64,000 nucleotides of DNA from contig OZ024741.1 of the NCBI GenBank assembly GCA_964016885.1, positions 239,630,001 through 239,694,000 on the forward strand. The letters run 5' to 3'. A model generated the notes under the pieces. The model had not been told where the DNA came from, did not search any database, and saw nothing but the letters and a program-made list of their open reading frames with translations. Every line of letters begins with the position of its first letter. Positions within the stretch are counted from its first letter, which is position 1. This stretch comes from Eledone cirrhosa (Eukaryota). The position numbers and the translations under genes were made by a program. Shown one piece after another: positions 423-34,053 of the stretch.

Positions 423-2774
423 CTTTGTGGATTTCTGAAGAGATCTGTTCATTGTTGATGTCTTCCACTCTTCAGGATAGTAATGACTTCTAGACTGACT
501 ATATCTGTCTGATATCTCTCCTCGATTACCTGACATCACAGATACACTGTTGTTACCTTGATAGATCAACTGTCTCATCTCATTACGACATTGGTATGCC
601 TGTTTCTCTTCTGTTGTTCTAGCTGAGTTATTTCTTACATTGTTACATCTCACAATACACAATGTTATAGAAACCACAATAGCTATAGATACTATCACAG
701 CTGCTACTACAATGATAATCAACAATGTTGCATCTATTGTGTTATCAGTTGGTACATGGACAGCTGTGAACATTGGTGATGTCTTGTTACTAACAGTCAG
801 TGTTAAAGAGACACTAGTTGCTGCTGACAGAACTGGAGTACCACTGTCTTTCACAACAAACTCCAGTTGATATGATCCTGCATCATTTTGGTAAACTGTG
901 CGAGAGTAAGATAAGACACCAGTGAATGAGTCCAGTTTAAATAACTGTCTCTCATTACCTGAAAGGATTTCATACCTGAGAAAAGCATTCATGTGACTGT
1001 CTATATCAGAGGCTTTCAGAAGTGTTATGTCATTCTTACTTTGTGGATGATAGTGGACATCAAGAGTGAAAGGGTCAACACTAGGAAATGTAAAATATGG
1101 AACATTATCATTTTTATCTAATACTTCCACTTCAACATTCACTGTGTTATTTAGAGATGGTGTTCCATTGTCTTTGACAAAAACCTCAAAGTCATAGAAA
1201 TCTCTGTGTTCTCTGTCTAAAGACTGGTTTGTTGAAATAAAGCCAGAGTTGATAATCTGGAATGGTAGACGATATTGGTGTTTATTTCTCAGATAATAAC
1301 TTAATTCACCTCCCTTACCAACATCTGGGTCTGTAGCATTGATAAAACCAATAGGGAAATTAGCTTTGTCATTTTCATAGGTAAGGAACTTGAATGTATC
1401 TTTGGTAAAGTGTGGTTTTACATCATTCACATCTAACACTTGTATTGAGAGATCTTTATCAGTTTTGAGAGAAGGTAATCCTTTATCTTGACAAGAGACA
1501 GTAAAGTGATAATGTTCCTGTGTCTCTCTGTCTACTGCTTTCTTTAGAACTATTTTATATTCCTTAGATCCCATTGATTGGAGTTTGAATGTATCATGTT
1601 TGATATTACAGCTGACCTCTCCATTGTGTCCAACATCATTGTCAGTGACCATCACATAAGCAATGAAACTACCAACTTTGATATCTTCCAGAATGGTAGC
1701 TGTGTTGTGAATCTCTGTAGAAATATAGTTGACATCAATATTTGGAGGATTGTTGTGTTGGTTGATAACCTTAACCATAACAGTTGCTATGGAACTGAGA
1801 GGAGGGCTCCCTCCATCTTTTGCTTCAATGTATAATTTTAACGTGCTTTTAGTGTCAATTTCTAATGGTTTTATTAAGAATATTTTTCCAGTATTTTCAT
1901 CAACACTAAAGTATCCTTTCATCTTCTCTTCAGTTTTTGGACTAAAATAAAAAGATGTTTTACCATTCCTACCAATATCTAAATCATTGGCAGATAACGT
2001 GACTACTGGAATATTCTTTTTGTGCTTATGTTTTATAGAGACATTATAGATACTATGAGAAAATTGTGGTCTGTTGTCATTTTCATCTTCTACAGATATT
2101 TTAACATTTAAAATACTTTGTTTTGGTGGAGTTCCTCCATCTTTAGCAATGACTTCAATATTGTAACTGTCTTTCTGTTCTCTGTCTAATTTACCTTCTA
2201 AGATAATTTCTAATGTTGAAATTCCATCTGCACGCTTCAAAACAGTTAAAGAGAAATTGCCATCATCAGTTAACGTATACGTTATGAAACTGTTCTGATA
2301 TCCTACATCTTTGTCAACAGCATTGGGTATGGCTTTCTTCATACCTTTACCATCTCCTTCCCTAAAATTAAGTGTAATGTCTTTCTCAGGAAACTCAGGT
2401 TGGTGGTCATTGATGTCTTCTATTATGACTTTAATTTTTAATATCTTCATAAATGTCTTGGATTTGTGAACAGCAACTTTAACTATTTCAAAACATTCTT
2501 TCTCATAACTACACACAGACTCAGCATCCAATGTCTGAACAGTGTACAGTTTACCTGTTTTTGTCACATTGAACAATTGTTCTCCCTTTTGTTGTAGTTG
2601 ACTAAATGTAATTAAATCCTTATTCTTTAAGAAGGAGCTATCTGATGTCTGTAAGTCAGTAGCAATGTCCCCTATATATGTATAGGGATTACTCTCTTCT
2701 TTAACATGGTATATAATATGTTCACTCAGATAACAGTGGAAGAAAGTCAGTAAAATACACAGAAATAATAACAT
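423..2774 (-). CDS. Pcdh: Protocadherin gene 1, large coding exon (signal peptide, EC1-EC6, TM, juxtamembrane); cytoplasmic exons lie off-window to the left
   Basis: Cadherin motifs (DINDHQP, LDRE, DENDN, DVND, DKNDN), EC1 C-x5-C, TM LLIIIVVAAVIVSIAIVVSITLCIV. Phase-0 donor AAG|GTAAAC at 423/422; acceptor TTTCAG|ATTG at 2832/2831. Confidence 0.95.
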
Positions 2775-5002
2775 CTCTGCTCTCGATGGTAATACAATAT
2801 CCAGGAGAAATTACAGCTTCAAATATTCAATCTGAAATGAAAACAATTTCAATATATTAATTGAATCTGATATGTTAAGGGTTATCTTGCTTTTTTCATG
2901 AAATTCTCATTGGTTTAACTTAGCATCTTACGTTTGAGAAATACCTGCTGTATCCTAAATATATTCTTTAAATACAGAGTGACAATTGCAGTGGTTCTGC
3001 CCTGCACTGAACAGCCCAGTATGTACACCTTTCTTAAGCAGTAAAGATTTTGCTGTCTGGGCCACATCCAACACATGAGCTGGCATCTGGAAGAAGGTTC
3101 ATAGGCCAGCCCAAGCTATGCTATCATGATGTTTGCACAACAAACATATAGACACTCAATATTAATACAAAATTCTGGCAGAGCTTTTCAGATGACCAAA
3201 ACCCTGAACAGCTAACTAAAGATAGGAGAAACAAATCTATTGGATGAAACAGAAGAAAATGGCACAGCAGTAACAACAGATAAAATAACACACGTAGATA
3301 TGACCTATACATCAAAACTGCAACTGCTGCAAATAACACTGCTTTTAAATAGCAAAGAAATAATTATTTTAAAAATCTATATTTCAATCTATATAAAGAA
3401 TATTTTAAGTAAGATGATATCTAAGTAATACTGGATTCAACTAACATATATTACCTCTATTTTATATATTAAAATATGGGTTCTATTTAATTGGTATCAA
3501 ATTTTAATGAGAAATATTAAGTTGGGAAAACTATTAAAATATAGACATTACATAGGAGGACGTTTGGAGTTATCTCTCTTGAACAAGAAATAATTTCAGA
3601 TATTACATTATATTCAACAAAACTGAAACATCTTATAAAGGTAATGTACAAATCAACATCACAGCTGCGATGTTAGTCACCTATTGTGTAAAAATGGACG
3701 GAATTATAGATTAGAATTTCTCAAGTATTATAATCTATATTGAACGGTATTGACAAGATATCTATTTACTAACTGCTATTGATATATTCAAAAATATATT
3801 CTAAACTAAATAACATTTTATACAATTAGCATTACCAATTCAATAATTTTTCTCTCAGAAAACATACTTTCTCTCACAAAACATACTTTGTCAAAACCTG
3901 TAGTACAAATAAAGTTACAATTTTAAAATCTTCGAAATCACTTTAAATACTTTTAATTATTTAGACTACATTCACATGATTCTTCTATTTGTGATATCAG
4001 CAACTTAAGCCTTTTTCATTTTTCATTTAACTAATTATAATATGAAACAAGCGATCACAATGTTTTTATTACAGGACTTCATTGCAATAAATTCTGGAAG
4101 TATTAATCTGAATACCTTAAATTTAACACTTCAGCAGAATATATATCTTTTGTTTAAATATCAAACTAATTTTTTATAAAGCCATCAAATTAACAGATTT
4201 CCATTTAACTGGGTTTTTTTTACAGTTGAGAAATAAATAAAATTAAGTTAAAAGCCACAATTAGTACATGAACATTGTTCATACAGATCATGGCTATAGA
4301 TTGTTTATATCTCATCTTGCTAAAGGTTACAAAACTTATAATAGGGAATTATAGAAATATCATGGATATATTTGGCCTGTTATCTAAAATATATTAATGA
4401 TTGTATATTTAAAACACTAAAGATATGTCATATTTGTAAATATAATTTCAAAAATAAAATGCTGAAATCAGATTAATAGGACATATTTTCTATGGGCATC
4501 AATAAACATATACACACATTGTATATATATATATAACTGTGTACATAATATCATTCTGTACATAATATCATAAATTATTTGATTGCCTGATATTATTTAC
4601 ATAAAACCTATATTACAGTATATATTTCAATGATATTTACGTTCAATATTTAGTATGTACTAAGACCATACAATGTCTGACTGAATAATTCAGTAAAAAT
4701 ATATAATGACGTATTATTTGAAAATGTAATACACAAGATAAATATTGTAAATACAACAAAGATGACTGCAAATATTTTCAGAAATATATTATATAAAACT
4801 ACAATTCAAAATAATTTCCTCTCTCTCACTGTTTCTTACAAAATACTTGATAGCCATGTTGGTAAAGAAGACATTCAATGAGAACTAACACAGATCTAAT
4901 ATGGCCACCATTACAATATTATATTTTCATGTTAGAATATAGCTATATATGAAGTTATTATTTTACATGACTGGATAAATAATATTGAATAATAAAACTT
5001 AC

Positions 5003-5340
5003 ATTCATTGTGTAAAATCCTTTGTTATAAACTGTAATTTGGTCCCAATGTTGTTGTTAATGGTTGTCTGTGTCACTGCTGCTATGGTGTGACAATGGCT
5101 TCATGTTGATGGAATAGTGTTGGTAGTGAGTCAGTGGGAACCAGCAGTTCCTCTCAGTCTTCTGTGTATGTGTGATGTTTACTGAGTGTGAGTGTGTGAG
5201 AGAAAGAGGTGGGGGAGGGTGATGCTTACGCCAGCCTCACTCAGACTAGATGTGTTTCCCCTCACAGTGAAGAGGGAGAGAGAGAGAGAAGACACTATAT
5301 CAGCTCCACTAACAGTCAGCCATAATATGTCTATATAATA
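5003..5340 (-). promoter_or_regulatory. Gene 1 non-coding first exon and proximal promoter block
   Basis: Donor AAT|GTAAGT at 5003/5002; block conserved upstream of all five genes; Inr-like TCAGT near 5183; TSS not determined. Confidence 0.7.
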
Positions 5341-6076: not shown

Positions 6077-6195
6077 TTAACTGGCAACAACATCTGGTGT
6101 TGAAGGTAACTGTCTCTCTGGAGGTTTCACATATCTGTCTTGGTAATGGTCTCTCTCATTGTTGCTTGACACATCAGGTGGGACACCATAGATTC
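6077..6195 (-). CDS. Pcdh: Gene 2 terminal cytoplasmic exon (GIYGVPPDVSSNNERDHYQDRYVKPPERQLPSTPDVVAS*)
   Basis: TTTCAG acceptor, phase 1 matches previous exon, open to TAA; repeated in each unit. Confidence 0.88.
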
Positions 6196-6545
6196 CTGAA
6201 ACAAGTACATCAACACAACTTACCATTTAGTTCACATAGATAGATAATGGTTATTTTATTGATAATAATCATCAATTGTTTATCCACTACATCCACTGAA
6301 CTAAGAGAGAAAATAACAATCATATATTTACATCTTTACAATCTTAATAAACCACTAATTAGTTAAATAAAATAATATCTTTAGTAATTTAAAATCAATA
6401 TTAAATTACTTTAACTTTTAGTCTTTGAATTGACAACATGAGTAAAAATAATAAATCGCGGAAGTCACACAGTGCTTCGTTTAGGACTTACTCTGATATG
6501 TAACACTGAGAAAGACCATAAACATTTATGAAGATATTGTTTTAC

Positions 6546-6696
6546 CTGACATTGCTGGTATTTCTTCATACTGTCTACTTGACCTTTCACTCCAGCATTG
6601 TCCACTGCTCTTACGACTGGTCAATGTATCAGTGGGATAGTTAGAAGATGGTCTGTTGTCTCCATAAGATGTCACCTCTATTGGTTGACTGTATTT
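6546..6696 (-). CDS. Pcdh: Gene 2 first cytoplasmic exon (151 nt; KYSQPIEVTSYGDNRP...QYEEIPAMS)
   Basis: CAG acceptor and CAG|GTAAAA donor, phase 0 in and phase 1 out, open frame, conserved in each unit. Confidence 0.9.
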
Positions 6697-6723
6697 CTGA
6701 TGGAAAATATAGTTACAAGATAA

Positions 6724-8709: not shown

Positions 8710-11061
8710 CTTCGTGGATTTTTGAAGAGATCTGTTCATTGTTGATGTCTTCCAGTCTTCAGGATAGTAATGACTTCTAGACTGACTATATCTGTCCGAT
8801 ATATCTCCTCGATTACCTGACATCACAGATACACTGTTGTTACCTTGATAGATCAACTGTCTCATCTCATTATGACATTGGTATGCCTGTTTCTCTTCTG
8901 TTGTTCTAGCTGAGTTATTTCTCACATTGTTACATCTCACAATACACAATGTTATAGAAACCACAATAGCTATAGATACTATCACAGCTGCTACTACAAT
9001 GATAATCAACAATGTTGCATCTATTGTGTTATCAGTTGGTACATGGACAGCTGTGAACATTGGTGATGTCTTGTTACTAACAGTCAGTGTTAAAGAGACA
9101 CTAGTTGTTGCTGACAGAACTGGAGTACCACTGTCTTTCACAACAAACTCCAGTTGATATGATCCGGCATCATTTTGGTAAACTGTACGAGAGTAAGATA
9201 AGACACCAGTGAATGAGTCCAGTTTAAATAACTGTCTCTCATTACCTGAAAGGATTTCATATCTGAGAAAAGCATTCATATGACTGTCTATATCAGAGGC
9301 TTTCAGAAGTGTGATGTCATTCTTACTTTGTGGATGATAGTGTATATCAAGAGTGAAAGGGTCAACACTAGGAAATGTAAAATATGGAACATTATCATTT
9401 TTATCTAATACTTCCACTTCAACATTCACTGTGTTATTTAGAGATGGTGTTCCATTGTCTTTGACAAAAACCTCAAAGTCATAGAAATCTCTGTGTTCTC
9501 TGTCTAAAGATTGGTTTGTTGAAATAAAGCCAGAGTTGATAATCTGGAATGGTAGACGATATTGGTGTTTATTTCTCAGATAATAACTTAATTCACCTCC
9601 CTTACCAACATCTGGATCTGTAGCATTGATAAAACCAATAGGGAAATTAGCTTTGTCATTCTCATAGGTAAGGAACTTGAATGTATCTTTGGTAAAGTGT
9701 GGTTTTACATCATTCACATCTAACACTTGTATTGAGAGATCTTTATCAGTTTTGAGAGGAGGTAATCCTTTATCTTGACAGGAGACAGTAAAGTGATAAT
9801 GTTCTTGTGTTTCTCTGTCTACTGCTTTCTTTAGAACTATTTTATATTCTTTAGATCCCATTGATTGGAGTTTGAATGTATCATGTTTGATATTACAGCT
9901 GACCTCTCCATTGTGTCCAACATCATTGTCAGTGACCATCACATATGCAATGAAACTACCAACTTTGATATCTTCCAGAATGGTAGCTGTGTCGTGATTC
10001 TCTGTAGAAATATAGTTGACATCAATATTTGGAGGATTGTTATGTTGGTTGATAACCTTAACCATAACAGTTGCTATGGAACTGAGAGGAGGGCTCCCTC
10101 CATCTTTTGCTTCAATGTATAATTTTAACGTGCTCTTAGTGTCAATTTCTAATGGTTTTATTAAGAATATTTTTCCAGTATTTTCATCAACACTAAAGTA
10201 TCCTTTCATCTTTTCTTCAGTTTTTGGACTAAAATAGAAAGACATTTTACCATTCCTACCAATATCTAAATCATTGGCAGATAACGTGACTACTGGAATA
10301 TTCTTTTTGTGCTTATGTTCTATAGAGACATTATAGATACTATGAGAAAATTGTGGTCTGTTGTCATTTTCATCTTCTACAGATATTTTAACATTTAAAA
10401 TACTTTGTTTTGGTGGAGTTCCTCCATCTTTAGCAATGACTTCAATATTGTAACTGTCTTTCTGTTCTCTGTCTAATCTAGCTTCTAAAATAATTTCTAA
10501 AGTTGAAATTCCATCTGCTCGTTTCAAAACTGTTAAAGAGAAATTGCCATCATCAGTTAATGTATACGTTATGAAACTGTTCTGATAACCAACATCTTTA
10601 TCCACTGCATTTTCTATTGACCTCTTGGTACCTTTACTATCAGTTTCGGAAAACTGTATATTTACTTGTTCAGTTGGAAACTCAGGTTGGTGGTCATTGA
10701 TGTCTTCTATTATGACTTTAATTTTTAATATCTTCATAAATGTCTTGGATTTGTGAACAGCCACTTTCACTATTTCAAAACATTCTTTCTCATAACTACA
10801 CACAGACTCAGCATCCAATGTCTGAACAGTGTACAGTTTACCTGTTTTTGTCACATTGAACAATTGTTCTCCCTTTTGTTGTAGTTGACTAAATGTAATT
10901 AAATCCTTATTCTTTAAGAAGGAGCTATCTGATGTCTGTAAGTCAGTAGCAATGTCCCCTACATAAGTATAGGGATTACTCTCTTCTTTAACATGGTATG
11001 TGATATATTCACTTAGATAACAGTGGAAGAAAGTCAGTAAAATACACAGAAACAACAACAT
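8710..11061 (-). CDS. Pcdh: Protocadherin gene 2, large coding exon; spliced product ~873 aa
   Basis: Six cadherin repeats plus TM; donor AAG|GTAAAA at 8710/8709; acceptor at 11119/11118. Confidence 0.95.
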
Positions 11062-13143
11062 CTCTGCTCTTGATGGTAATACAGTATCCTGGAGAAATTA
11101 CAGCTTCAAATATTCAATCTGAAACAGAAATAGTTTTAGTATGGCAATATGAAGTGAACAGATGGTAAACATGAAAACAATATTCTATAGTAATTATCAA
11201 ATTATTTGTGGTATAATTATCACAAAATAAGAGCAAAGCTAGCAATGTTTTTCTCATGCTGTACAAGTGAACCAGATTTATTATGACTAATCCACAATAC
11301 CATGGAATATGATTCTACCTCCTTCGCAGTTTTACACATATTGAAGCTGGGTGTGCAAAATTTACACATTTACGTTTTGATTTATTGTTTCACAGCTTTT
11401 ATTATTATGACTTTTGAATTAAACATATCACCTATTTTAATCATTCACAGCTTGAAGCAAACATGTCTATTCCTGAGATTATATCACTCAAGCTACAAAT
11501 CTAGATAAGAAAGAAGGATGGTTATATAATGGCTAATCACGCCAGATGTAAACGCACCACTTTATTTAAGACACTAATATGAGTTACCTCCCATATGCTC
11601 AGAAATTAATTTGGCTTTAACACATCAAAGTCAAATTATATTGTAAAAATTATTTGAAAAACATCATTGTAACTAAAGTATTAGATAACAATAGTAATAA
11701 TTTCATAATGATTTATGTGAGTAACCTTCTATTGATTTTATAAAATTGGGTGAAATTTGAGATTATGGTATTTTAAATATCACAATCAATATTAAACAGT
11801 AACAACTCAAATGATTCTTATTGAAAAATGCAGAAGATATATAATGTAAACTGGTCAATGTTTGATATTTAAAATTTTTTTTATTCAATATGTAACCCAC
11901 CAAAAATTTACTGTTTTGTAAATACGTCTATCTTAAATTAATTAATGAAACTTCGTAAATTTATAAATGAACTAAGAAATGTATTTGATGGCATATGAAA
12001 TAAAATATTTTTTAAATATCACCGGGATCCTAAGTGCAAAGTTGAGGTAAACACACAACAAATATATTTCTTAATATTCCCTGTTCAAATTATCTTAAAT
12101 ATCTGAGAGGATGAATGTTGTTAAAAACTATAAAAGTGGGGAAAAACTGCATTAAAATGCCTGGCATATTGTTAAAAGTATTTCAAATTCAGTATGTATA
12201 TTTAAAAGCAAAATGAACTAATAAGGATAATTGTATTTTTAAGTTAAGTGATGTCATAATTCATACAAATTAAGACAATTTCCACATGAAACTATTCTGA
12301 CCAAACACTGAACCATTGAAGTGAAGATATACACACACTCACAAATTGTAGATACATGTACACACACACACATACATACATATATATACATACACACAAA
12401 ACAGGAGGAAACATAATAGTAACACTGATAAGGTCATAGGCGTGTGATGAAAAAACTTTGATAGACTATATGTATATATTTATATCTATATTTTTTTAAC
12501 TGTTGGTCAATCAATGTTAAACACTGATTGCCAGCTAAATTAACTATAAAGATATAAAATATACAGAAGCGAAAACCAATCCAAACCAAACAGTGAGTGT
12601 GTTTTATTATTATTTCTGGCAATATTATAACAATATGACCCTCCCAAAATATAATGATACACACACACACATGTATATATATATGTATGTATGCGTGTGC
12701 ATATATACCATCATGAGATGTTACACTGAATTTTATTTGAGGAAATTTACATAAATCCTACATTACTCTATACAGTTCAATATTCTTGTTCAATAATAAC
12801 TATATACTAAGACCATACAATGTCTGACTGAATAATTCAGTAAAAATATATAATAAGTAATGTTTAAATGTAATAAACAAGATAAATATTGTAAATACAT
12901 CAAAGATGACAGCAAATATTCTGAGAAGTATGTTATATAAAACTACAATTGAATATATATTCCTCTCTCACACTGTTTCTTACACAATACTTGATAGCCA
13001 TGATGGTAAAGAAGACATTCAGTGAGAACTAACACAGATCTAATATGGCCACCATTACAATATTATATTTTGATGTTATAATATAGCTATATATGAGGTT
13101 ATTATTTTACATGACTGGATAAATAATATAGAATAAAACTTAC

Positions 13144-13490
13144 ATTCATTGTGTAAAATCCTTTGTTATAAACTGTGAGTTGGTCCCAATGTTCTGTTAA
13201 TGGTTGTCTGTGTCACTGCTGCTATGGTGTGACAATGGCTTCATGTTGATGGAATAGTGTTGGTAGTGAGTCAGTGGGAACCAGCAGTTCCTCTCAGACT
13301 TCAATGTGTATGTGTGATGTTTACTGAGTGTGAGTGAGTGAGGGGTGGGAGAGAGGTGGGGGAGGGTGATGCTTACTCCAGCTTCACTCAGACTAGATGT
13401 GTTTCCCCTCACAGAGAAGAGGGAGAGAGAGAGAAGATACAATATCAGCTCCACTAACAGTCAGCCATAATATGTCTATATAATACCAAC
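13144..13490 (-). promoter_or_regulatory. Gene 2 non-coding first exon and proximal promoter block
   Basis: AAT|GTAAGT donor at 13144/13143; near-identical to 5003-5340. Confidence 0.7.
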
Positions 13491-14106: not shown

Positions 14107-14225
14107 TTAACTAGCAACAACATCTGGTGTTGAAGGTAACTGTCTCTCTGGAGGTTTCACATATCTGTCTTGGTAATGGTCTCTCTCATTGTTGCTTGAC
14201 ACATCAGGTGGGACACCATAGATTC
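14107..14225 (-). CDS. Pcdh: Gene 3 terminal cytoplasmic exon
   Basis: Paralog of 6077-6195 with intact acceptor and TAA. Confidence 0.88.
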
Positions 14226-14431: not shown

Positions 14432-14582
14432 CTGACATTGCAGGTATTTCTTCATACTGTCTACTTGACCTTTCACTCCAGCACTGTCCACTACTCTTAC
14501 AACTAGTCAATGTATCAGTGGGATAGTTAGAAGATGGTCTGTTGTCTCCATAAGATGTCACCTCTATAGGCTGGCTGTATTT
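14432..14582 (-). CDS. Pcdh: Gene 3 first cytoplasmic exon (151 nt)
   Basis: Paralog of 6546-6696; CAGCAG acceptor, GTAAAA donor. Confidence 0.9.
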
Positions 14583-15046
14583 CTGCTGTAAAATATAATT
14601 AGAGCGTATAAAGATATTTATAACAATGTACCTAAAATTGTAAACTGTAAAAATATTGGACCATTATCTACAAAAATATAAATTGTATAAAACTTTCTAT
14701 CAGACCACTTTCAATCATACCACAGAAAATGTATCCAGGACAAGTTTATAGCTCACTCAAACTATTTCTTTTTTTAGGCCTACCTATATTGATCTTATGT
14801 TCATATTGTTCATGAGTTTGTAATACACACGCGTAGTCATACTAAGCCAAGTATTTGGAAGGTTTCTTTACAGAAAGGCAATTTACAGAGCCACCTAAAT
14901 TCCACAAAGTTAGCTAAGATCATACTGACATATAGTATAACAGCTTGGCAAAAAACAAAAAGAGTGAGAGACAGCAATGTATGAATACATACATGATTCT
15001 TCTACTATTGACCTTCTTAGATATACATTTACCAACAAAAATGGGA

Positions 15047-15076
15047 AGCCTATGAACTTTTCAGCCCACTCTCGTA
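15047..15076. mobile_element. Solo mariner TIR remnant in gene 3 intron
   Basis: AGCCTATGAACTTTTCAGCCCACTCTCGTA matches the TIR at 8448-8477 at the paralogous position. Confidence 0.75.
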
Positions 15077-15301: not shown

Positions 15302-17656
15302 CTTTGTGGATTTTTGAAGAGATCTGTTCATTGTTGATGTCTTCCAGTCTTCAGGATAGTAATGACTTCTAGACTGACTATATCTGTCTGATATCTCTCC
15401 TCGATTACCTGACATCACAGATACACTGTTGTTACCTTGATAGATCAACTGTCTCATCTCATTACGACATTGGTATGCCTGTTTCTCTTCTGTTGTTCTA
15501 GCTGAGTTATTTCTCACATTGTTACATCTCACAATACACAATGTTATAGAAACCACAATAGCTATAGATACTATCACAGCTGCTACTACAATGATAATCA
15601 ACAATGTTGCATCTATTGTGTTATCAGTTGGTACATGGACAGCTGTGAACATTGGTGATGTCTTGTTACTAACAGTCAGTGTTAAAGAGACACTAGTTGT
15701 TGCTGACAGAACTGGAGTACCACTGTCTTTCACAACAAACTCCAGTTGATATGATCCAGCATCATTTTGGTAAACTGTGCGAGAGTAAGATAAGACACCA
15801 GTGAATGAGTCCAGTTTAAATAATTGTTTCTCATTACCTGAAAGGATTTCATACCTGAGAAAAGCATTCATGTGACTGTCTATATCAGAGGCTTTCAGAA
15901 GTGTGATGTCATTCTTACTTTGTGGATGATAGTGGACATCAAGAGTGAAAGGGTCAACACTAGGAAATGTAAAATATGGAGCATTATCATTTTTATCTAA
16001 TACTTCCACTTCAACATTTACTGTGTTATTTAGAGATGGTGTTCCATTGTCTTTGACTAAAACCTCAAAGTCATAGAAATCTCTGTATTCTCTGTCTAAA
16101 GACTGGTTTGTTGAAATAAAGCCAGAGTTGATAATCTGGAATGGTAGACGATATTGGTGTTTATTTCTCAGATGATAACTTAATTCACCTCCCTTACCAA
16201 CATCTGGGTCTGTAGCATTGATAAAACCAATAGGGAAATTAGCTTTGTCATTCTCATAGGTAAGGAACTTGAATGTATCTTTGGTAAAGTGTGGTTTTAC
16301 ATCATTCACATCTAACACTTGTATTGAGAGATCTTTATCAGTTTTGAGAGGAGGTAATCCTTTATCTTGACAGGAGACAGTAAAGTGATAATGTTCCTGT
16401 GTCTCTCTGTCTACTGCTTTCTTTAGAACTATTTTATATTCCTTAGATCCCATTGACTGTAGTTTGAATGTATCATGTTTAATATTACAGTTGACTTCTC
16501 CATTGTGTCCAACATCATTGTCAGTGACCATCACATAAGCAATGAAACTACCAACTTTGATATCTTCCAGAATGGTAGCTGTGTTGTGAATCTCTGTAGA
16601 AATATAGTTGACATCAATATTTGGAGGATTGTTGTGTTGGTTAATAACATTTACAATAACAGTTGCTATGGAACTAAGAGGAGGACTGCCATTATCTCTG
16701 GCTTTTATGTATAATTTAAAATACTCTTCCATATCTATATCTGCAGATTTAACTAAATATAACTTTCCTGTATTTTCATCTAAATCAAAGTATCTTTTAA
16801 TTTTCTCTGAAGTTGTCATTGCAAAATAGAAAGATATTTTACCATTCCTGCCAATATCTAAATCATTGGCAGATAATGTCACTACTGGAATATTCTTTTT
16901 ATGTTTATGTTCTATAGAGACATTGTAGATACTTTTGGAGAATTTTGGTATATTATCATTTTCATCTTTAACAGATATTTTAACATTTAAAATACTTTGC
17001 TTAGGTGGAGTTCCTCCATCTTTAGCAATCACCTCAATATTGTAGCTGTCTTTCTTTTCCCTGTCTAATTTCTCTTCTAAAATAATTCCTAATGTTGATA
17101 TTCCACCAGCTTCCTTGGAAACACTTAATGAAAATTGTCCATCATTGTGTTTCAGTTCATATTTAATTAATCTGTTTTGATATCCTACATCTTTGTCAAC
17201 AGCATTGGGTATGGCCTTCTTCATACCTTTACCATCTCCTTCCTCAAACACGAGCGTTATGTCTTTCTCAGGAAACTCAGGCTGGTGGTCATTGATGTCT
17301 TCTATTATGACTTTCATTTTTAATATCTTCATAAATGTCTTGGATTTGTGAACAGCAACTTTAACTATTTCAAAACATTCTTTCTCATAACTACACACAG
17401 ACTCAGCATCCAATGTCTGAACAGTGTACAGTTTACCTGTTTTTGTCACATTGAACAATTGTTCTCCCTTTTGTTGTAGTTGACTAAATGTAATTAAATC
17501 CTTATTCTTTAAGAAGGAGCTATCTGATGTCTGTAAGTCAGTAGCAATGTCCCCTACATAAGTATAGGGATTACTCTCTTCTTTAACATGATATGTGATA
17601 TGTTCACTTAGATAACAGTTGAAGAAAGTCAGTAAAATACACAGAAACAACATCAT
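15302..17656 (-). CDS. Pcdh: Protocadherin gene 3, large coding exon; spliced product ~874 aa
   Basis: Six cadherin repeats plus TM; donor at 15302/15301; acceptor at 17714/17713. Confidence 0.95.
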
Positions 17657-19885: not shown

Positions 19886-20220
19886 ATTCATTGTGTAAAA
19901 TCCTTTGTTATAAACTGTGAGTTGGTCCCAATGTTCTGTTGTTAATGGTTGTCTGTGTCACTGCTGCTATGGTGTGACAATGGCTTCATGTTGATGGAAT
20001 AGTGTTGGTAGTGAGTCAGTGGGAACCAGCAGTTCCTCTCAGTCTTCTGTGTATGTGTGATGTTTACTGAGTGTGAGTGTGTGTGTGTGAGGGAGGGTGA
20101 TGCTTACTCCAGCTTCACTCAGACTAGATGTGTTTCCCCTCACAGAGAAGAGGGAGAGAGAGAGAAGACACTATATCAGCTCCACTAACAGTCAGCCATA
20201 ATATGTCTATATAATACCAA
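19886..20220 (-). promoter_or_regulatory. Gene 3 non-coding first exon and proximal promoter block
   Basis: AAT|GTAAGT donor at 19886/19885; conserved block. Confidence 0.7.
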
Positions 20221-20965: not shown

Positions 20966-21084
20966 TTAACTGGCAACAACATCTGGTGTTGAAGGTAACT
21001 GTCTCTCTGGAGGTTTCACATATCTGTCTTGGTAATGGTCTCTCTCATTGTTGCTTGACACATCAGGTGGAACACCATAGATTC
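20966..21084 (-). CDS. Pcdh: Gene 4 terminal cytoplasmic exon
   Basis: Paralog of 6077-6195, intact. Confidence 0.88.
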
Positions 21085-21428: not shown

Positions 21429-21579
21429 CTGACATTGCTGGTATTTCTTCATACTGTCTACTTGACCTTTCACTCCAGCATTGTCCACTGCTCTTATGAC
21501 TAGTCAATGTATCAGTGGGATAGTTAGAAGATGGTCTGTTGTCTCCATAAGATGTCACCTCTATTGGTTGACTGTATTT
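21429..21579 (-). CDS. Pcdh: Gene 4 first cytoplasmic exon (151 nt)
   Basis: Paralog of 6546-6696 with intact splice sites. Confidence 0.9.
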
Positions 21580-21806
21580 CTGATGGAAAATATAGTTACA
21601 AGATAGAGTATAAAGATATCATTTATGATATCTATCAATATCTAGGACATTTAGTATATTTTAGGTACACTGTCGTAAATGATATTTTTATACTCTGTTA
21701 AAATATTGGAACATTATCTACTAAAACATCAATTGTATAAAACTTTCTGTATGACCACTTTCAATCATACCACAGAAAATGTATCCAGTACAAGTTCCAA
21801 ATCATT

Positions 21807-21986
21807 GTAGATTGGCAGTATCAGTAGAGGGTCGGACGCCATGCTTTCCAGCATAGTTACGTCCCTTTACGATCTGAGTTCAAATCCCGTCGAGGTTGAC
21901 TTTGCCTTTCATCCTTACGGGATCGATAAAATAAAGTACCAGTAATGCACTGGGTAATTGCTGGCCTTGTGCCTAAAGTAGAAACA
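21807..21986 (+). mobile_element. tRNA-derived SINE (family A)
   Basis: Box A-like TGGCAGTATCAGTAG, box B GTTCAAATCC, core GCCTTTCATCCTTACGGGATCGATAAAATAAAGTACCAG (resembles the MetaSINE core); about ten copies in the window. Confidence 0.85.
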
Positions 21987-22129
21987 ATTATTTGATATCA
22001 TACTCCAAGGAATTTGTTTTTTAGGTCTACCTTTATTGGTGTTACATTCATATTGTGTGAGTTTGGGGTACACACTTGTAGCTATTCCAGGCCAATAATT
22101 TGGAAGGTTTCTTTACAGAAAAACAATTT

Positions 22130-23599: not shown

Positions 23600-25951
23600 C
23601 TTTGTGGATTTTTGAAGAGATCTGCTCATTGTTGATGTCTTCCAGTCTTCAGGACAGTAATGGCTTCTAGACTGACTATATCTGTCTGATATCTCTCCGC
23701 GATTACCTGACATCACAGATACACTGTTGTTACCTTGATAGATCAACTGTCTCATCTCATTACGACATTGGTATGCCTGTTTCTCTTCTGTTGTTCTAGC
23801 TGAGTTATTTCTTACATTGTTACATCTCACAATACACAATGTTATAGAAACCACAATAGCTATAGATACTATCACAGCTGCTACTACAATGATAATCAAC
23901 AATGTTGCATCTATTGTGTTATCAGTTGATACATGGACAGCTGTGAACATTGGTGATGTCTTGTTACTAACAGTCAGTGTTAAAGAGACACTAGTTGTTG
24001 CTGACAGAACTGGAGTACCACTGTCTTTCACAACAAACTCCAGTTGATATGATCCAGCATCATTTTGGTAAACTGTGCGAGAGTAAGATAAGACACCAGT
24101 GAATGAGTCCAGTTTAAATAACTGTCTCTCATTACCTGAAAGGATTTCATACCTGAGAAAAGCATTCATGTGACTGTCTATATCAGAGGCTTTCAGAAGT
24201 GTGATGTCATTCTTACTTTGTGGATGATAGTGGACATCAAGAGTGAAAGGGTCAACACTAGGAAATGTAAAATATGGAGCATTATCATTTTTATCTAATA
24301 CTTCCACTTCAACATTCACTGTGTTATTTAGAGATGGTGTTCCATTGTCTTTGACAAAAACCTCAAAGTCATAAAAATCTCTGTACTCTCTGTCTAAAGA
24401 CTGGTTTGTTGAAATAAAGCCAGAGTTGATAATCTGGAATGGTAGACGATATTGGTGTTTATTTCTCAGATAATAACTTAATTCACCTCCCTTACCAACA
24501 TCTGGGTCTGTAGCATTGATAAAACCAATAGGGAAATTAGCTTTGTCATTCTCATAGGTAAGGAACTTGAATGTATCTTTGGTAAAGTGTGGTTTTACAT
24601 CATTCACATCTAAGACTTGTATTGAGAGATCTTTATCAGTTTTGAGAGGAGGTAATCCTTTATCTTGACAGGAGACAGTAAAGTGATAATGTTCCTGTGT
24701 CTCTCTGTCTACTGCTTTCTTTAGAACTATTTTATATTCTTTAGATCCCATTGACTGTAGTTTGAATGTATCATGTTTGATATTACAGCTGACCTCTCCA
24801 TTATGTCCAACATCATTGTCAGTGACCATCACATAAGCAATGAAACTATCAACTTTGATATCTTCTAGAATGGTAGCTGTGTTGTGATTCTCTGTAGAAA
24901 TATAGTTGACATCAATATTTGGAGGATTGTTGTGTTGGTTGATAACATTTACCATAACAGTTGCTATGGCACTTAGTGGTGGACTGCCATTATCTCTGGC
25001 TTCAATGTATAATTTAAAAAACTCTTCCATATCAATTTCTGCAGATTTAGCTAAATATAACTTTCCAGTATTTTCATCTACATCAAAGAATCTTTTCATT
25101 TTTTCTGCAGTTTTCCTTGCAAAATAGAAATATATTTTACCATTCCTACCAATATCTAAATCATTGGCAGATAATGTCACTACTGGAATATTCTTTTTAT
25201 GTAAATGTTCAATAGAGACATTGTAGTTACTTTGGGAAAATTGCGGTCTGTTATCATTTTCATCTTCTACAGATATTTTGACATTTAAGATACTTTGTTT
25301 AGGTGGAGTTCCTCCATCTTTAGCGATGACTTCAATATTGTAACTGTCTTCCTTTTCCCTGTCTAATTTACCATCTAGGATTATTTCTAATGTTGATATT
25401 CCATCAGTTTGTTTGGAAACTGATAAAGAAAAATATTCATTATGCTTGTTTAATGCATATGTAATTAAGCTGTTCTCATACCCAACATCTTTGTCAATGG
25501 CACTGGGAATAGGTTTCTTCATACCTTTACCATCTCCTTCCCTAAAATTAAGTGTGATTTCTTGCTCAGGAAACTCAGGATGATGATCATTGATGTCTTC
25601 TATTATGACTTTAATTTTTAATATCTTCATAAATGTCTTGGATTTGTGAACAGCAACTTTAACTATTTCAAAACATTCTTTCTCATAACTACACACAGAC
25701 TCAGCATCCAATGTCTGAACAGTGTACAGTTTACCTGTTTTTGTCACATTGAACAATTGTTCTCCTTTTTGTTGTAGTTGACTAAATGTAATTAAATCCT
25801 TATTCTTTAAGAAGGAGCTATCTGATGTCTGTAAGTCAGTAGCAATGTCCCCTACATAGGTATAGGGATTTCTCTCTTCTTTAACATGGTATATGATATA
25901 TTCACTTAAATAACAGTGGAAGAAAGTCAGTAAAATACACAGAAATAACAT
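23600..25951 (-). CDS. Pcdh: Protocadherin gene 4, large coding exon; spliced product ~873 aa
   Basis: Six cadherin repeats plus TM; donor at 23600/23599; acceptor at 26009/26008. Confidence 0.95.
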
Positions 25952-28087: not shown

Positions 28088-28420
28088 ATTCATTGTGTAA
28101 AATCATTTGTTATAAACTGTGAGATGGTCCCAATGTTCTGTTAATGGTTGTCTGTGTCACTGCTGCTATGGTGTGACAATGGCTTCATGTTGATGGAATA
28201 GTGTTGGTAGTGAGTCAGTGGGAACTAGCAGTTCCTCTCAGTCTTCTGTGTATGTGTGATGTTTACCGAGTGTGAGTGTGTGAGAGAGAGGTGGGGGAGG
28301 GTGATGCTTACTCCAGCCTCACTCAGACTAGATGTGTTTCCCCTCACAGAGAAGAGGGAGAGAGAGAAAAGACACTATATCAGCTCCACTAACAGTCAGC
28401 CATAATATGTCTATATAATA
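28088..28420 (-). promoter_or_regulatory. Gene 4 non-coding first exon and proximal promoter block
   Basis: AAT|GTAAGT donor at 28088/28087; conserved block. Confidence 0.7.
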
Positions 28421-29157: not shown

Positions 29158-29276
29158 TTAACTGGCAACAACATCTGGTGTTGAAGGTAACTGTCTCTCT
29201 GGAGGTTTCACATATCTGTCTTGGTAATGGTCTCTCTCATTGTTGCTTGATACATCAGGTGGGACACCATAGATTC
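29158..29276 (-). CDS. Pcdh: Gene 5 terminal cytoplasmic exon
   Basis: Paralog of 6077-6195, intact. Confidence 0.88.
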
Positions 29277-29620
29277 CTGAAACAAGTACATCAACACAAC
29301 TTACCATTTAGTTCACATAGATAGACAATGGTTATTTTATTGATAATAATCATCAATTGTTTATCCACTACATCCACTGAACTAAGAGAGAAAATAATAA
29401 TCATAATAGAATTCATACAAGATCATATATTTACATCTTTACAATCTTAATAAACCACTAATTAGTTAAATAAAATAATATCTTTAGTAATTGAAAATCA
29501 ATATTAAATTACTTGAACTTTTTGTCTTGAATTTACAACAAACATAGTGCTTTGTTTAGGACTTACTCTGATATGTAACACTGAGAAAGACCATAAACAT
29601 TTATGAAGATATTGTTTTAC

Positions 29621-29771
29621 CTGACATTGCTGGTATTTCTTCATACTGTCTACTTGACCTTTCACTCCAGCATTGTCCACTGCTCTTATGACTAGTCAAT
29701 GTATCAGTGGGATAGTTAGAAGATGGTCTGTTGTCTCCATAAGATGTCACCTCTATTGGTTGACTGTATTT
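29621..29771 (-). CDS. Pcdh: Gene 5 first cytoplasmic exon (151 nt)
   Basis: Paralog of 6546-6696 with intact splice sites. Confidence 0.9.
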
Positions 29772-29795
29772 CTGATGGAAAATATAGTTACAAGA

Positions 29796-29937
29796 TAGAG
29801 TATAAAGATATCATTTATGACAATGTACCTAAAATATACTAAATGTCCTAGATATTGATAGGTACATGTATCTATCAATATCTAGGACATTTAGTATATT
29901 TTAGTTACACTGTCGTAAATGATATTTTTATACTCTA
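29796..29937. repeat. 142-bp near-perfect palindrome in gene 5 intron
   Basis: Centre at 29866/29867; paralog of 6724-6859. Confidence 0.92.
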
Positions 29938-30064
29938 CTGTTAAAATATTGGACCATTATCTACTAAAACATCAATTGTATAAAACTTTCTGTATGACCA
30001 CTTTCAATCATACCACAGAAAATGTATCCAGTACAAGTTCCAAATCATTATTTGATATCATACT

Positions 30065-30251
30065 AGGGCGGTAGATTGGCAGTATTGGTAGAGGATCGGA
30101 CGCCATGCTTTGACGTATAGAGTTACGGCCCTTGCCATTCTGAGTTCAAATCTCGCCAAGTTAACTTTTCCTTGCATCCTTACGGGGTCAATAAAATAAA
30201 GTACCAGTAATGCACTGGGTAATTGCTGGCCTTGTGCCTAACGTAGAAACA
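30065..30251 (+). mobile_element. tRNA-derived SINE (family A) with 18-bp target-site duplication
   Basis: ATTATTTGATATCATACT at 30047-30064 and 30252-30269; empty site in gene 2 at ~6972. Confidence 0.9.
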
Positions 30252-30394
30252 ATTATTTGATATCATACTCCAAGATATTTGTTTTTTAGGTCTACCATTA
30301 TTGATGTTACATTTATATTGCATGAGTTTGGGGTACACACTTGTAGCTATTCCAGGCCAATAATTTGGAAGGTTTCTTTACAGAAAAACAATTT

Positions 30395-31479
30395 ATTTTT
30401 CAACATTGTCCACCTTGCATTCCACACATTTCTTTCATCAGTTTTGCAGTTCTTGGATCCCATTGGTGAAGAAGCTTTCATATTGTTGGTAAATCAAATT
30501 CATCAACAGCAGATAACACATTATCACTGCAAAACTGGTTCTCAGCCAAGTGTTTTTCGTGTCAGGGAACAGATGATAATCAGATGGGCAAAATCAGTTG
30601 AATAGGGAGGGTGATCAATTTGTTCAAATCCAGTCATGCACAGTAGCCATTGAAACCAAGGACTTGTGTTGGAGCATTGTCCTAATGAAGCAAGACCCCT
30701 TTCATCAGAATTCCTGAGATTATGGTCTTGATTGACTTTCATAACTACCTTAACGAGATGGTATAGTACTCTTCATTGATGGTGTGGCTCTTTTGAAGAT
30801 ACCCAACAAACACAATGTCTTTTGCATCCCAAATGTCTGAGGGCATCACCTTCCTTGCAGATGAAATGACCTTGGCCTTCTTTGGACAACTGTTTCCACT
30901 ACATGGATTGTCTCTTTGTCTGGCTCAAAGTGATGAACCCAACACTAATCCTGGGTTAGGAAACATTCAAGGGAACCAGCTGGATCTGCCTCAAATAATG
31001 TCAGATTTCCCTGTGATGTGATCAACTTGGTGTGCTTTTGATCAGGTGTCGGAAAACATGGCACTCATCAAGCAGAAACCTTCGTCATACCAAGTTCTTT
31101 GTGCAGACTACTCTCAACTCTCACACGGGACACACTAATAGCATTGGGTATTAATAGTCAACTGCTCTCATCCATCACCATGCAGTGAACACGATCAATG
31201 TTTTCCTCAGTTGCAGGACTTCCAGAACTTGTGTCATCTTCAAAGCTCTCCCCTCCCGCCTAAATTCAGTTGCCCACTTTTACAATGTTGATAAAGCTGG
31301 AGCATTATCCCTAATGTTGCAACCATGTTAGCATGAATGTCCTTGGAGACTAAACCCTTTTTTTTCAGGTACTCGATAACACCGCGATGCCATATTTTGC
31401 ACATTTTCAAGAGAAGTTGCTACTCATTACTTTTGAAGTCTTCTTTGAACAGGCAGTTTACATGGAAAGAAACAATGCA
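30395..31479 (-). mobile_element. Decayed mariner in gene 5 intron, both ends deleted
   Basis: Paralogous copy of 7238-8477; DHPPYSTDFA motif. Confidence 0.85.
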
Positions 31480-31710
31480 AAGTTTTAACATGTAAACAGG
31501 TGTAAATTTAGGATTATCTTAGATTTCAAAAAACAGACAATAGAATTTTATCTCCAGATCATACCTTGTGTTTGGAGACATATAAATATTAAATTGCATT
31601 ATGTTTAATTAGTAATTTAAACAGTAATTGTGTGATCAAACACATTCAGTTTTATCATGCTTAATTAAACATTATTTACTAACAGGTATAAAATATAAAA
31701 TAGACTTTAC

Positions 31711-34053
31711 CTTCGTGGATTTTTGAAGAGATCTGTTCATTGTTGATGTCTTCCAGTCTTCAGGATAGTAATGACTTCTAGACTGACTATATCTGTCTGA
31801 TATCTCTCCTCGATTACCTGACATCACAGATACACTGTTGTTACCTTGATAGATCAACTGTCTCATCTCATTACGACATTGGTATGCCTGTTTCTCTTCT
31901 ATTGTTCTAGCTGAGTTATTTCTTACATTGTTACATCTCACAATACACAATGTTATAGAAACCACAATAGCTATAGATACTATCACAGCTGCTACTACAA
32001 TGATAATCAACAATGTTGCATCTATTGTGTTATCAGTTGGTACATGGACAGCTGTGAACATTGGTGATGTCTTGTTACTAACAGTCAGTGTTAAAGAGAC
32101 ACTAGTTGTTGCTGACAGAACTGGAGTACCACTGTCTTTCACAACAAACTCCAGTTGATATGATCCGGCATCATTTTGGTAAACTGTGCGAGAGTAAGAT
32201 AAGACACCAGTGAATGAATCCAGTTTAAATAACTGTCTCTCATTACCTGAAAGGATTTCATACCTGAGAAAAGCATTCATGTGACTGTCTATATCAGAGG
32301 CTTTCAGAAGTGTGATGTCATTCTTACTTTGTGGATGATAGTGGACATCAAGAGTGAAAGGGTCAACACTAGGAAATGTAAAATATGGAGCATTATCATT
32401 TTTATCTAATACTTCCACTTCAACATTCACTGTGTTATTTAGAGATGGTGTTCCATTGTCTTTGATAAAAACCTCAAAATCATAGAAATCTCTGTGTTCC
32501 CTGTCTAAAGACTGGTTTGTTGAAATAAAACCAGAGTTGATAATCTGGAATGGTAGACGATATTGGTGTTTATTTCTCAGATAATAACTTAATTCACCTC
32601 CCTTACCAACATCTGGGTCTGTAGCATTGATAAAACCAATAGGGAAATTAGCTTTGTCATTCTCATAGGTAAGGAACTTGAATGTATCTTTGGTAAAGTG
32701 TGGTTTTACATCATTCACATCTAACACTTGTATTGAGAGATCTTTATCAGTTTTCAGAGAAGGTAATCCTTTATCTTGACAGGAGACAGTAAAGTGATAA
32801 TGTTCCTGTGTCTCTCTGTCTACTGCTTTCTTTAGAACTATTTTATATTCTTTAGATCCCATTGACTGTAGTTTGAATGTATCATGTTTGATATGACAGC
32901 TGACCTCTCCATTATGTCCAACATCATTGTCAGTGACCATCACATAAGCAATGAAACTACCAACTTTGATATCTTCCAGAATGGTAGCTGTGTTGTGATT
33001 TGGTGTAGAAATAAAGTTAACATCAATATTTGGACGATTGTTGTGTTGGTTGATAACATTTACCATAACAGTTGCAATGGAACTGAGAGGAGGGCTCCCT
33101 CCATCTCTGGCTTCAATATATAATTTATAAAACTTTTTATTTAATTTTGAATGTTTATTTAGAAAAAGTTCCCCAGTCTCCTTATTCAATATAAAATATG
33201 CTTTCATTTTTTCATCTGTGGTTAGACTGAAATAGTATGAAATTTTACCATTTTTTTTAATATCAGAATCTTTTGAAGACAGTGTTACAATCGGAATCTG
33301 TCTTTGGTGAGCATCTGTAACAGAAATATTGTAAATATTTCTAGAAAATTTTGGTTGATTATCATTCTCATCTCTGACAGAAATATGGACCTTCAAGGCA
33401 GTTTGTTTTGGTGGGGAACCTTCATCTTTTGCTATAATATCTATTCTATAGCTATCTTTTGATTCCCGATCTAATTTGTCTTCTAAAACAATTTTCAACG
33501 AAGATACACCATCAGCTCTTTTTGAAATAGATAAACTGAATGGCTCAGTAGTCTTTTTTAATTCATATCTAATCAATTTATTCTTAAACCCAACATCCCT
33601 GTCAACAGCATTTGGTATAGATATTGGTGAACCTTTCCCATCTCTCTCTGAAAACTGGATATTAACTTCTTGGACAGGAAACTCAGGTTGATGATCATTG
33701 ATGTCCTCTATTATAACTTTCACTTTCAGAATCTTCATGAAAGTACTTTTCTTATGTACAGCAACCTTTATGATTGTAAAACATTCTTTTTCAAAAGTAC
33801 ACAGACTTTCAGCATCTAGTCTCTGAGCAGTGAAAATTTTGCCTAGTTTGGTGATATTAAATAATTGTTTATCATCGTGCAATTGACTAAATGTTAGCTG
33901 AATGTTTTCTGTGGTTGCATTGTCAAATAAAATAGAATCACTAATATCCCCGACATATGTATATGCTTTATTTTCTTCTTTCACATGATATGTAATATCA
34001 ACACACATACATCTGTATAGCAAGCATAAAAGGATATATATAGCTGCAAGCAT
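31711..34053 (-). CDS. Pcdh: Protocadherin gene 5, large coding exon with divergent signal/EC1-EC3; spliced product ~870 aa
   Basis: Six cadherin repeats plus TM; donor at 31711/31710; probable acceptor TTGTAG at 34107/34106. Confidence 0.95.

Follow-up and report, generated by a model that had tools for sequence, protein, structure and literature searches.

One exchangeable EC2 cassette on a partly locked backbone as a proposed source of diversity in a homogenised protocadherin array of Eledone cirrhosa

The window analysed here, a stretch of 64,000 nucleotides (nt) of the Eledone cirrhosa genome (assembly GCA_964016885.1, contig OZ024741.1, positions 239,630,001 to 239,694,000), carries on its minus strand five protocadherin genes, which are the 5' end of a head-to-tail array of 43 genes. 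The diversity of this array appears to be composed of a single free cassette of 69 bp in the second extracellular cadherin domain (EC2) and of a partly locked backbone, which is the remainder of EC2 and EC3. The comparison of the gene sequences indicates that the cassette is likely exchanged by gene-to-gene copying. That gene conversion with such a floating cassette has shaped the array is in our opinion close to certain, and we assign a probability of roughly 0.58 to the reading that selection for recognition diversity maintains the cassette and the other blocks via a vertebrate-like interface. The initial annotation of this stretch, made from its letters alone, had proposed a combinatorial shuffling of EC2-EC3 blocks as the generator of a neuronal identity code. 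The shuffling stands for one cassette (gene 1 residues 127-149), but EC2 D-E, EC3 A' and EC3 C-F remain correlated; block mosaicism is supported, but the process is germline and evolutionary and does not act in the neuron.

Results

Five intact open reading frames (ORFs), each about 805 codons long, are found in the window together with a sixth unit that is broken. The start codons of genes 1 to 5 lie at 2774, 11061, 17656, 25951 and 34053, and the span 423-34053 described by the initial annotation reaches from the donor of gene 1 to the ATG of gene 5. A search of the species' own genome showed that the array extends leftward past the window: 664 kb of contiguous sequence hold 47 long minus-strand protocadherin ORFs (A01-A47), and 43 of these, A02-A44, form a tight head-to-tail array of 388 kb, all on the minus strand. 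It starts in transcription order with window gene 5 (A02), which is followed by genes 4, 3, 2 and 1 (A03-A06); thus the five genes first described are intact, but they are a part of 43. Genes 1 and 5 match Pfam PF08266 (Cadherin_2) and five stretches of PF00028 (Cadherin), and the proteins have the make-up of protocadherins, namely six cadherin repeats with a Cadherin_2-type EC1, one transmembrane (TM) segment and a cytoplasmic tail. The best-matching proteins carry the name protocadherin and come from Octopus and Argonauta (91-93% identity over the rear part), and the identity to both clustered and delta protocadherins is about 30%.

The EC4-EC6 domains, the TM segment and the tail had been described as almost identical in the five genes even at synonymous sites, and the five-gene synonymous p-distances bear this out: 0.10 in EC4, 0.056 in EC5, 0.049 in EC6, 0.00 in the TM segment and 0.064 in the tail, although the tail runs on into two further coding exons per gene. 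EC1 is indeed nearly identical in genes 1-4 (0.062), EC2 (0.54) and EC3 (0.44) are the variable part, and the three motif splits quoted by the annotation are all present in the alignment as written. In the core of the array, defined as the 32 genes A03-A34 with one common EC1 type, the synonymous divergence dS is 0.074 in EC1, 0.509 in EC2, 0.401 in EC3, 0.081 in EC4, 0.049 in EC5, 0.060 in EC6, 0.016 in the TM segment and 0.084 in the tail. A separate subfamily of six genes has the same shape (dS 0.066 in EC1, 0.22 in EC2, 0.24 in EC3 and 0.054 in EC4). The EC2-3 proteins of the core are distinct in 31 of 32 cases, with a mean pairwise identity of 77%.

The diversity of EC2-3 is concentrated in four peaks between homogenised linkers, which we call B1 (the cassette), B2, B3 and B4. 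Their positions in gene 1, and that of the cassette in gene 2, are as follows:

2328..2396, minus strand: gene 1 cassette B1, E-type, residues 127-149, EC2 A'-B strands
2172..2306, minus strand: gene 1 block B2, residues 157-201, EC2 C-D-E strands and DE loop, coupled to B3 and B4
2019..2090, minus strand: gene 1 block B3, residues 229-252, EC2-EC3 linker and EC3 A' strand
1764..1958, minus strand: gene 1 block B4, residues 273-337, EC3 C strand, Phe-X11-Phe helix loop and D-G strands
10615..10683, minus strand: gene 2 cassette B1, T-type, on a gene-1-like backbone

The blocks of EC2-EC3 had been said to show conflicting relationships. A test of the pairwise homoplasy index (PHI) type supports this for EC2-3 in the five genes and also in the core (p=0.0005 in both, the floor of 2000 permutations in our own implementation), but only one conflict in the window is real, because the mid-EC2 and EC3 blocks follow the same split of genes 1,2 versus 3,4 and the EC2-start block alone groups genes 1,3,4 versus 2,5. 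The informative sites of the five genes support 134|25 at residues 133-150 and mostly 12|34 afterwards. Between genes 1 and 2, 30 of 66 nt are different in the EC2-start block and 16 of 570 nt in the remaining EC2-3. A recent conversion from gene 5 to gene 2 is ruled out, as 15 of the 66 nt differ between them; the sharing is ancient.

The linkage of the cassette (B1, taken here as residues 130-151) with B2, B3 and B4 is r=0.05, -0.05 and 0.00, whereas the minima of 200 simulations on one tree with fitted site rates are 0.46, 0.24 and 0.51. B2, B3 and B4 are correlated across the homogenised linkers (B2-B3 r=0.51, B2-B4 0.30, B3-B4 0.38; permutation p at most 0.003 with 4999 permutations), which rules out free shuffling of all EC2-3 blocks. 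The values of B2-B3 and B3-B4 are inside or at the edge of the single-tree range, and that of B2-B4 is below it (minimum 0.63), so some exchange has occurred between B2 and B4 too. Approximately unbiased (AU) tests, which on segments of 66-195 nt are biased toward the fitted tree, let each block's tree reject the others, and the single-tree simulation was the control that we used. No single tree therefore accounts for all segments, since the linkage of the cassette falls below every single-tree simulation and the segment trees conflict. A GENECONV-like run test gave p<0.05 for 32 of 496 core pairs, with many matches in the conserved linkers; such a test is thus sensitive to rate variation, and it was not relied on.

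The limits of the cassette, at about residue 127 and at 148-156 in three-codon windows, lie within conserved calcium-binding motifs. The T-type cassette is present in 13 of the 32 core genes, T and E versions occur on most backbone classes, and in 30 of 32 genes the nearest neighbour for the cassette differs from that for the backbone. Both types are ancient and are also found in Argonauta, Octopus and more distant octopod protocadherins. Among 15 Argonauta proteins B2-B4 is again correlated (r=0.65, p=0.001), while the correlations of B1 (0.16-0.24) are not significant. By alignment count, 14 residues in and beside the cassette differ between genes 1 and 2, against 10 in the remainder of EC1-4, and the two genes represent a natural near-isogenic pair for testing the cassette.

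Protein sets orthologous to the array are present in Argonauta and Octopus. The EC4-tail tree is arranged by species, with Shimodaira-Hasegawa-like approximate likelihood ratio (SH-aLRT) supports of 99.9 for the 44 own genes, 94.2 for Octopus and 71.9 for Argonauta, and with P0031 and P0033 as the outgroup. At 12 EC4-tail sites 42 of 42 own genes share a residue that is seen in 0 of 21 Argonauta and 0 of 8 Octopus proteins (a count made without A36, A45 and five divergent relatives, P0011, P0031, P0032 and P0033 among them, all of which were kept in the trees). The EC1 and EC2-3 trees pair genes across species: A45 with P0011, A38 with P0023, A36 with P0032, A39-44 with P0022, P0009 and P0024 and, in the EC2-3 tree, the pair A25/A29 with P0021/P0025. 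With 13 rows from the species itself and 15 from others, the species clade that EC4-tail already shows is rejected by EC1-3 (p-AU 8e-105). A species-wise rear half joined to a front half that pairs orthologues points to domain-restricted gene conversion: the genes appear to be old, with their rear halves rewritten within each lineage, and not the outcome of recent duplication. As in vertebrate clusters, EC4-6 is homogenised by conversion and EC2-3 is the most divergent part. The GC content at third codon positions (GC3) is 0.29-0.31 in EC1, B1 and EC4-tail against 0.19-0.22 in B2-B4, as conversion expects. Exons are 95-98% alike while introns have diverged: intron 1 has a median BLAST coverage of 6% over 496 core pairs, a measure used in place of MAFFT p-distances, which we judged unreliable for introns.

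A monomer model of EC1-4 (mean predicted local distance difference test score, pLDDT, 85.5) has protocadherin EC1-4 as its best PDB matches in both sequence and fold. On this model B1 corresponds to the A' strand, loop and B strand of EC2, B2 to the C-D-E strands and the DE loop, B3 to the A' strand of EC3, and B4 to the C strand, the Phe-X11-Phe helix and the D-G strands; the strand letters are labels that we assume from cadherin topology. The EC2 b4-b5 loop, EC3 b1b and the EC3 Phe-X10-Phe loop, which are described as contacting specificity regions (PMC5001838), coincide with B2, B3 and B4 on the model. The vertebrate specificity pairs 111:294, 125:253 and 128:257 (PMC5106212) correspond to 136:323, 150:279 and 151:about 282 of gene 1, as far as a sequence mapping at about 30% identity allows, made via alignments to gamma-B4 and gamma-A9 whose numbering serves as a stand-in. 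The cassette and the coupled blocks would thereby fall on vertebrate trans-interface positions, and the cassette is predicted to lie on the interface and to face the FG loop of EC3, without co-variation there. The strongest co-varying site pairs, which relatedness inflates, are 162:280, 183:278, 183:280, 185:241 and 181:235, and they link the elements that PMC5001838 describes. An association of 151:279 (R279 in 7 of 8 S151 genes) was not counted, being at the cassette edge and in related genes. The annotation had relied on EC2-3 carrying most of the specificity; PMC5001838 states so, but PMC5106212 finds specificity in EC1:EC4 too.

A separate observation concerns the EC3-EC4 linker, which in the array (gene 1 residues 338-344) reads NQHNNPP instead of DxNDNxP; EC3 is also without a clear DRE motif. 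The EC3-EC4 junction of the array proteins may have reduced calcium binding.

Gene structure and feature coordinates

For 43 of the 47 ORFs (A02-A34 and A36-A45) a script yielded a model of three coding exons, separated by GT-AG introns and closed by a single stop. It failed on A01, A35, A46 and A47; exons 2-3 of A35 were located by tblastn, A35 contributes exon 1 only, and A01, A46 and A47 were excluded from the analyses. A GT donor closes each large exon, and the tails of annotated relatives map twice within every unit. As every unit has its own exons 2 and 3, shared constant exons, which would contradict PMC9068888, are ruled out. The genes are close, same-orientation, multi-exonic whole-gene duplicates on one chromosome, as in a coleoid sub-array, and do not follow the vertebrate alpha/gamma scheme of variable exons joined to shared constant exons; the contigs leave room for occasional cross-unit splicing. 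The joint of intron 2 is visible in two RNA-like contig sets, untyped assembled runs that we judged to be RNA by exon-only cover and the spliced joint; one of the two covers exons only. In roughly half of the genes exon 2 has a tandem NAG-CAG acceptor (for example at window 14585 and 6696), by which one glutamine is added or omitted, and annotated relatives carry both forms.

One RNA-like contig departs from the large exon at an acceptor that lies 57 nt ahead of the ATG. The loose end of this contig corresponds to an intergenic element that is conserved and was found in 40 of 40 other intergenic intervals. The first-exon donor was located by pattern in 39 of 42 intervals and that of A03 separately, and 318 of 514 aligned columns of the upstream block (39 genes) are at least 90% conserved. 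Thus each gene, where tested, starts with a non-coding first exon of its own, nearly identical from gene to gene, and presumably has its own promoter as well. Most first exons carry an ATG immediately before the donor (donors 5003, 13144, 19886 and 28088), which gene 5 lacks; after splicing it would start a short upstream ORF in gene 2.

The exons of the window are listed below; exons 2-3 of gene 1 lie just left of it.

423..2774, minus strand: gene 1 (A06) large coding exon, with signal, EC1-EC6, TM and first cytoplasmic part; ends in an AAG|GT donor
5003..5330, minus strand: gene 1 non-coding first exon and putative promoter, 5' limit approximate; donor after 5003
6077..6195, minus strand: gene 2 (A05) last coding exon; intron joint 6194-6545 in two RNA-like runs
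6546..6696, minus strand: gene 2 small coding exon 2
8710..11061, minus strand: gene 2 large coding exon; splice acceptor at 11118
13144..13470, minus strand: gene 2 non-coding first exon and putative promoter, 5' limit approximate; exon end matches the loose end of the RNA-like contig at 11118
14107..14225, minus strand: gene 3 (A04) last coding exon
14432..14585, minus strand: gene 3 small coding exon 2
15302..17656, minus strand: gene 3 large coding exon; E-type cassette at 17210-17278
19886..20210, minus strand: gene 3 non-coding first exon and putative promoter, 5' limit approximate
20966..21084, minus strand: gene 4 (A03) last coding exon
21429..21579, minus strand: gene 4 small coding exon 2
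23600..25951, minus strand: gene 4 large coding exon; E-type cassette at 25508-25576
28088..28410, minus strand: gene 4 non-coding first exon and putative promoter, 5' limit approximate
29158..29276, minus strand: gene 5 (A02) last coding exon
29621..29771, minus strand: gene 5 small coding exon 2
31711..34053, minus strand: gene 5 large coding exon, divergent EC1-3 class with homogenised EC4-tail; T-like segment at 33616-33684
35991..36300, minus strand: gene 5 non-coding first exon and putative promoter, 5' limit approximate
39016-39171: degenerate exon 2 of the broken sixth unit
42384..43158, minus strand: broken sixth unit, which begins in EC4, is without most of EC5-EC6 and has a disrupted tail frame

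Discussion

The reading that we favour is that selection for recognition diversity maintains the cassette and the blocks, which would act via a vertebrate-like interface. Private changes number 113 nonsynonymous and 51 synonymous in the blocks versus 66 and 69 in the scaffold (Fisher p=0.0006), and their ratio of nonsynonymous to synonymous divergence (dN/dS) is 0.54 in the blocks (0.92 in B4) versus 0.26 in the scaffold. The separate six-gene subfamily has diversified in the same two domains, which counts for selection. Tajima's D is +2.85 in the cassette and -1.4 to -1.7 in the scaffold, a statistic that presumes a population and is descriptive only for paralogues.

That limit of Tajima's D and the low identity at which the interface positions were mapped speak against this reading, and so do several further observations. 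The core dN/dS is 0.14-0.32 across the six EC domains, with 0.27 in EC2 and 0.32 in EC3, so there is no positive selection on average, and the private changes of the cassette itself have a dN/dS of 0.24. The mapped pair 136:323 shows no co-variation, and site pairs of B1 by EC3 co-vary near background. The PHI test of EC3 alone is not significant (p=0.49 in the five genes, p=0.16 in the core), the homogenised linkers have a GC3 of 0.20, which is not what conversion expects, and the B2-B4 coupling can be plain shared ancestry. Finally, in a toy Moran model of neutral conversion (36 runs with arbitrary starting conditions) the EC2-3 island is erased without a homology requirement, but a requirement of 40 nt of identity keeps the island and breaks the linkage without selection.

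One would argue from this model that the pattern is a neutral by-product: conversion needs local identity, so a patch of old EC2-3 divergence would escape homogenisation, the cassette would be dragged along by tracts that start in EC1, and the variants would be neutral for binding. The 24 runs with the 40-nt requirement gave an island pi of 0.13-0.27 against 0.05-0.08 in the flanks and a B1-B2 linkage down to 0.07-0.19, and a dN/dS below 1 in every domain fits this explanation as well. However, none of the 36 runs gave a cassette Tajima's D above 1.54 (observed 2.85) or a B2-B4 r above 0.23 (observed 0.30), and 150-nt tracts eroded the edge block (0.14 versus 0.17 in B2), whereas the real cassette adjoins EC1 and is yet the most diverse block. 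Since the starting conditions are arbitrary, the simulations are weak evidence against neutrality; the island nevertheless occupies the domains that are also diverse in vertebrates, and it coincides with mapped interface positions. We regard the neutral explanation as possible, if rather improbable.

Conversion and selection could also both be real in a cell-type code of graded or heterophilic adhesion, in which the cassette would tune affinity or a contact in cis or with another ligand and would not serve a strict recognition of self. The indifference of the cassette to the mapped partner site 136:323 is what a tolerant interface would show, the constancy of EC1 and EC4 in the core removes half of the vertebrate specificity surface, and protocadherins are reported as cell-type markers in the octopus brain (PMC9795677). 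Yet the vertebrate proteins b6 and b8, 92% identical in EC1-4 with five interface differences, do not cross-bind (PMC8901172), whereas core EC2-3 pairs average the 77% given above, and the B2-B3-B4 coupling suggests matching constraints. Adhesion of this kind is in our judgement unlikely.

Recent whole-gene duplications with fast EC2-3 mutation and no conversion are scarcely credible. Two recent duplicate pairs exist (A26/A28 and A24/A27), and PMC9795677 dates the burst of one cluster to 8-14 million years ago from paralogue distances, but EC1-3 classes have orthologues in Argonauta and Octopus while the rear halves are species-specific, the introns have diverged beside nearly uniform exons, and the segment trees are in conflict. 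The array is likely the cluster dated there, and if it is, that burst would be an artefact of conversion. A collapse of similar copies into chimeras by the assembly is very unlikely, because the shared cassettes are non-identical (an identical partner exists in only 2 of 32 genes, which are one duplicate pair), every unit has introns of its own, and both cassette types occur on several backbones in the independent Argonauta and Octopus protein sets; exact short-read and RNA-like contigs, from three DNA-like runs on a single sample plus an RNA-like one, connect EC1 with the starts of both alleles, although the second junction of gene 2, from cassette to backbone, has no exact cover in the four runs.

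The mechanism that we propose under selection for recognition diversity has steps of unequal strength. Non-allelic conversion tracts very probably homogenise exons and not introns, and just as probably carry, on occasion, a whole cassette between the conserved calcium-motif anchors DINDHQP and DKD. Selection likely keeps the cassette alleles, as these would alter the partner choice of each protein. The proteins plausibly form a vertebrate-type antiparallel EC1-4 dimer, in which a constant EC1:EC4 contact would supply generic affinity and the DE loop at the top of EC2 would meet the A' strand and C-D loop at the bottom of EC3 in the partner; this contact would need a match, so that B2, B3 and B4 would travel together. 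The cassette would meet the less variable top of EC3 (FG loop), which would make it exchangeable, and would add a second, independent specificity axis. Near-identical promoters might let neurons express subsets of the genes and so obtain a code for self and non-self or for wiring, which is the most speculative step. Taken to its end, this would be a two-axis neuronal barcode that combines an inseparable EC2-DE/EC3 lock with a freely exchangeable cassette of 23 residues under interchangeable promoters, an idea that we hold only tentatively. In it the cassette alleles are older than the Argonauta-Octopus split, and conversion would be a germline shuffling machine, which mints self-compatible and mutually orthogonal specificities. 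The "new recognition specificities" and the "identity code" of the initial annotation are thus what we infer from patterns in the genes.

In the clustered protocadherins of vertebrates (alpha, beta and gamma) the genes likewise stand head to tail, EC1-TM is encoded by a single large exon, a conserved element lies upstream of every gene, and synonymous sites of the 3' ectodomains are homogenised, with the highest dS in EC2-3 (PMC1852091 for fugu, PMC4978886 for Xenopus); the variable blocks of the array map to trans-interface positions of the vertebrate proteins. The annotation's claim of convergence is supported; the same domains are homogenised and diverse, and the coleoid expansion has an independent origin according to PMC9068888. 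The vertebrate clusters differ in their shared constant exons, whereas here each gene has its own tail exons, which are themselves homogenised; EC1 is also homogenised in the 32-gene core, and vertebrate EC2-3 is apparently unconverted (PMC4978886), while in this array a single EC2 cassette moves between paralogues but is not homogenised. Coleoid sub-arrays (PMC9068888; the alpha and beta clusters of PMC9795677; PMC6339937) are also tandem, same-strand, multi-exonic full-gene duplicates, without shared constant exons according to PMC9068888, and conversion in them was already suggested (PMC9068888, PMC6339937). The available parts of these papers contain no domain-level map, cassette, block coupling or homogenised first exon, and in the literature at hand we found no paper with a by-domain conversion map, an EC2 cassette or binding tests for cephalopod protocadherins.

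A further parallel is found in other recognition families. The insect Dscam1 combines modules, its variable Ig half-domains, by splicing in each cell. Dscam1 and the chelicerate sDscam arrays share with this array a recognition diversity that is obtained from modular surface patches on a constant scaffold. Dscam1 differs in its unrelated fold, and here the modules are combined in the germline by DNA exchange and are fixed per gene.

At the level of sequence, our findings are a sign that the octopod cluster, which expanded independently, diversified in the two domains that are also diverse in vertebrates. In mouse five interface residues are enough for strict specificity (PMC8901172), and PMC9068888, in the parts available, makes no claim on the function of coleoid protocadherins. 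If the proposed reading is true, the exchanged cassette would multiply the set of tags on the cell surface by which neurons, as predicted, recognise one another. There are two practical consequences. Dates for these clusters that rest on whole-gene distances come out far too young. Within the array, neither short-read nor 5'/3' single-cell counts can be attributed to individual genes, because only EC2-3 and the non-coding flanks distinguish them.

Additional observations

A recent duplication of a two-gene block (contig 239440277-239478350) has left A26 and A28 with identical EC2-3 proteins and A24 and A27 98% identical; this block could be an uncollapsed haplotype. At 76 kb upstream of the array (contig 239740184 downwards, minus strand) lies A01, an open chimeric ORF with a core EC1-EC2 and a T-type cassette, most of EC3 deleted, array-type EC4-EC5 and then EC6, TM and tail of another protocadherin class, which suggests ectopic recombination outside the array. 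Beyond the 3' end of the array there is a lone TM-tail fragment of the array type (contig 239238715-239238945), 94% identical to gene 1 over 68 residues. The broken sixth unit is a pseudogene at the 5' edge of the array, whose EC4 and EC6-TM remnants are 96-99% identical to the intact genes and whose tail exon has decayed.

Two plus-strand ORFs at window 61656-63849 have reverse-transcriptase-like and GIY-YIG-like motifs and no Pfam match at 0.001; they resemble what we take to be a Penelope-type retroelement. A dispersed repeat of about 190 bp, by its size like a short interspersed element (SINE), occurs in both orientations, with copies at 21800-21993, 30074-30258, 37182-37380, 45149-45337, 54104-54614 and 60270-60477.

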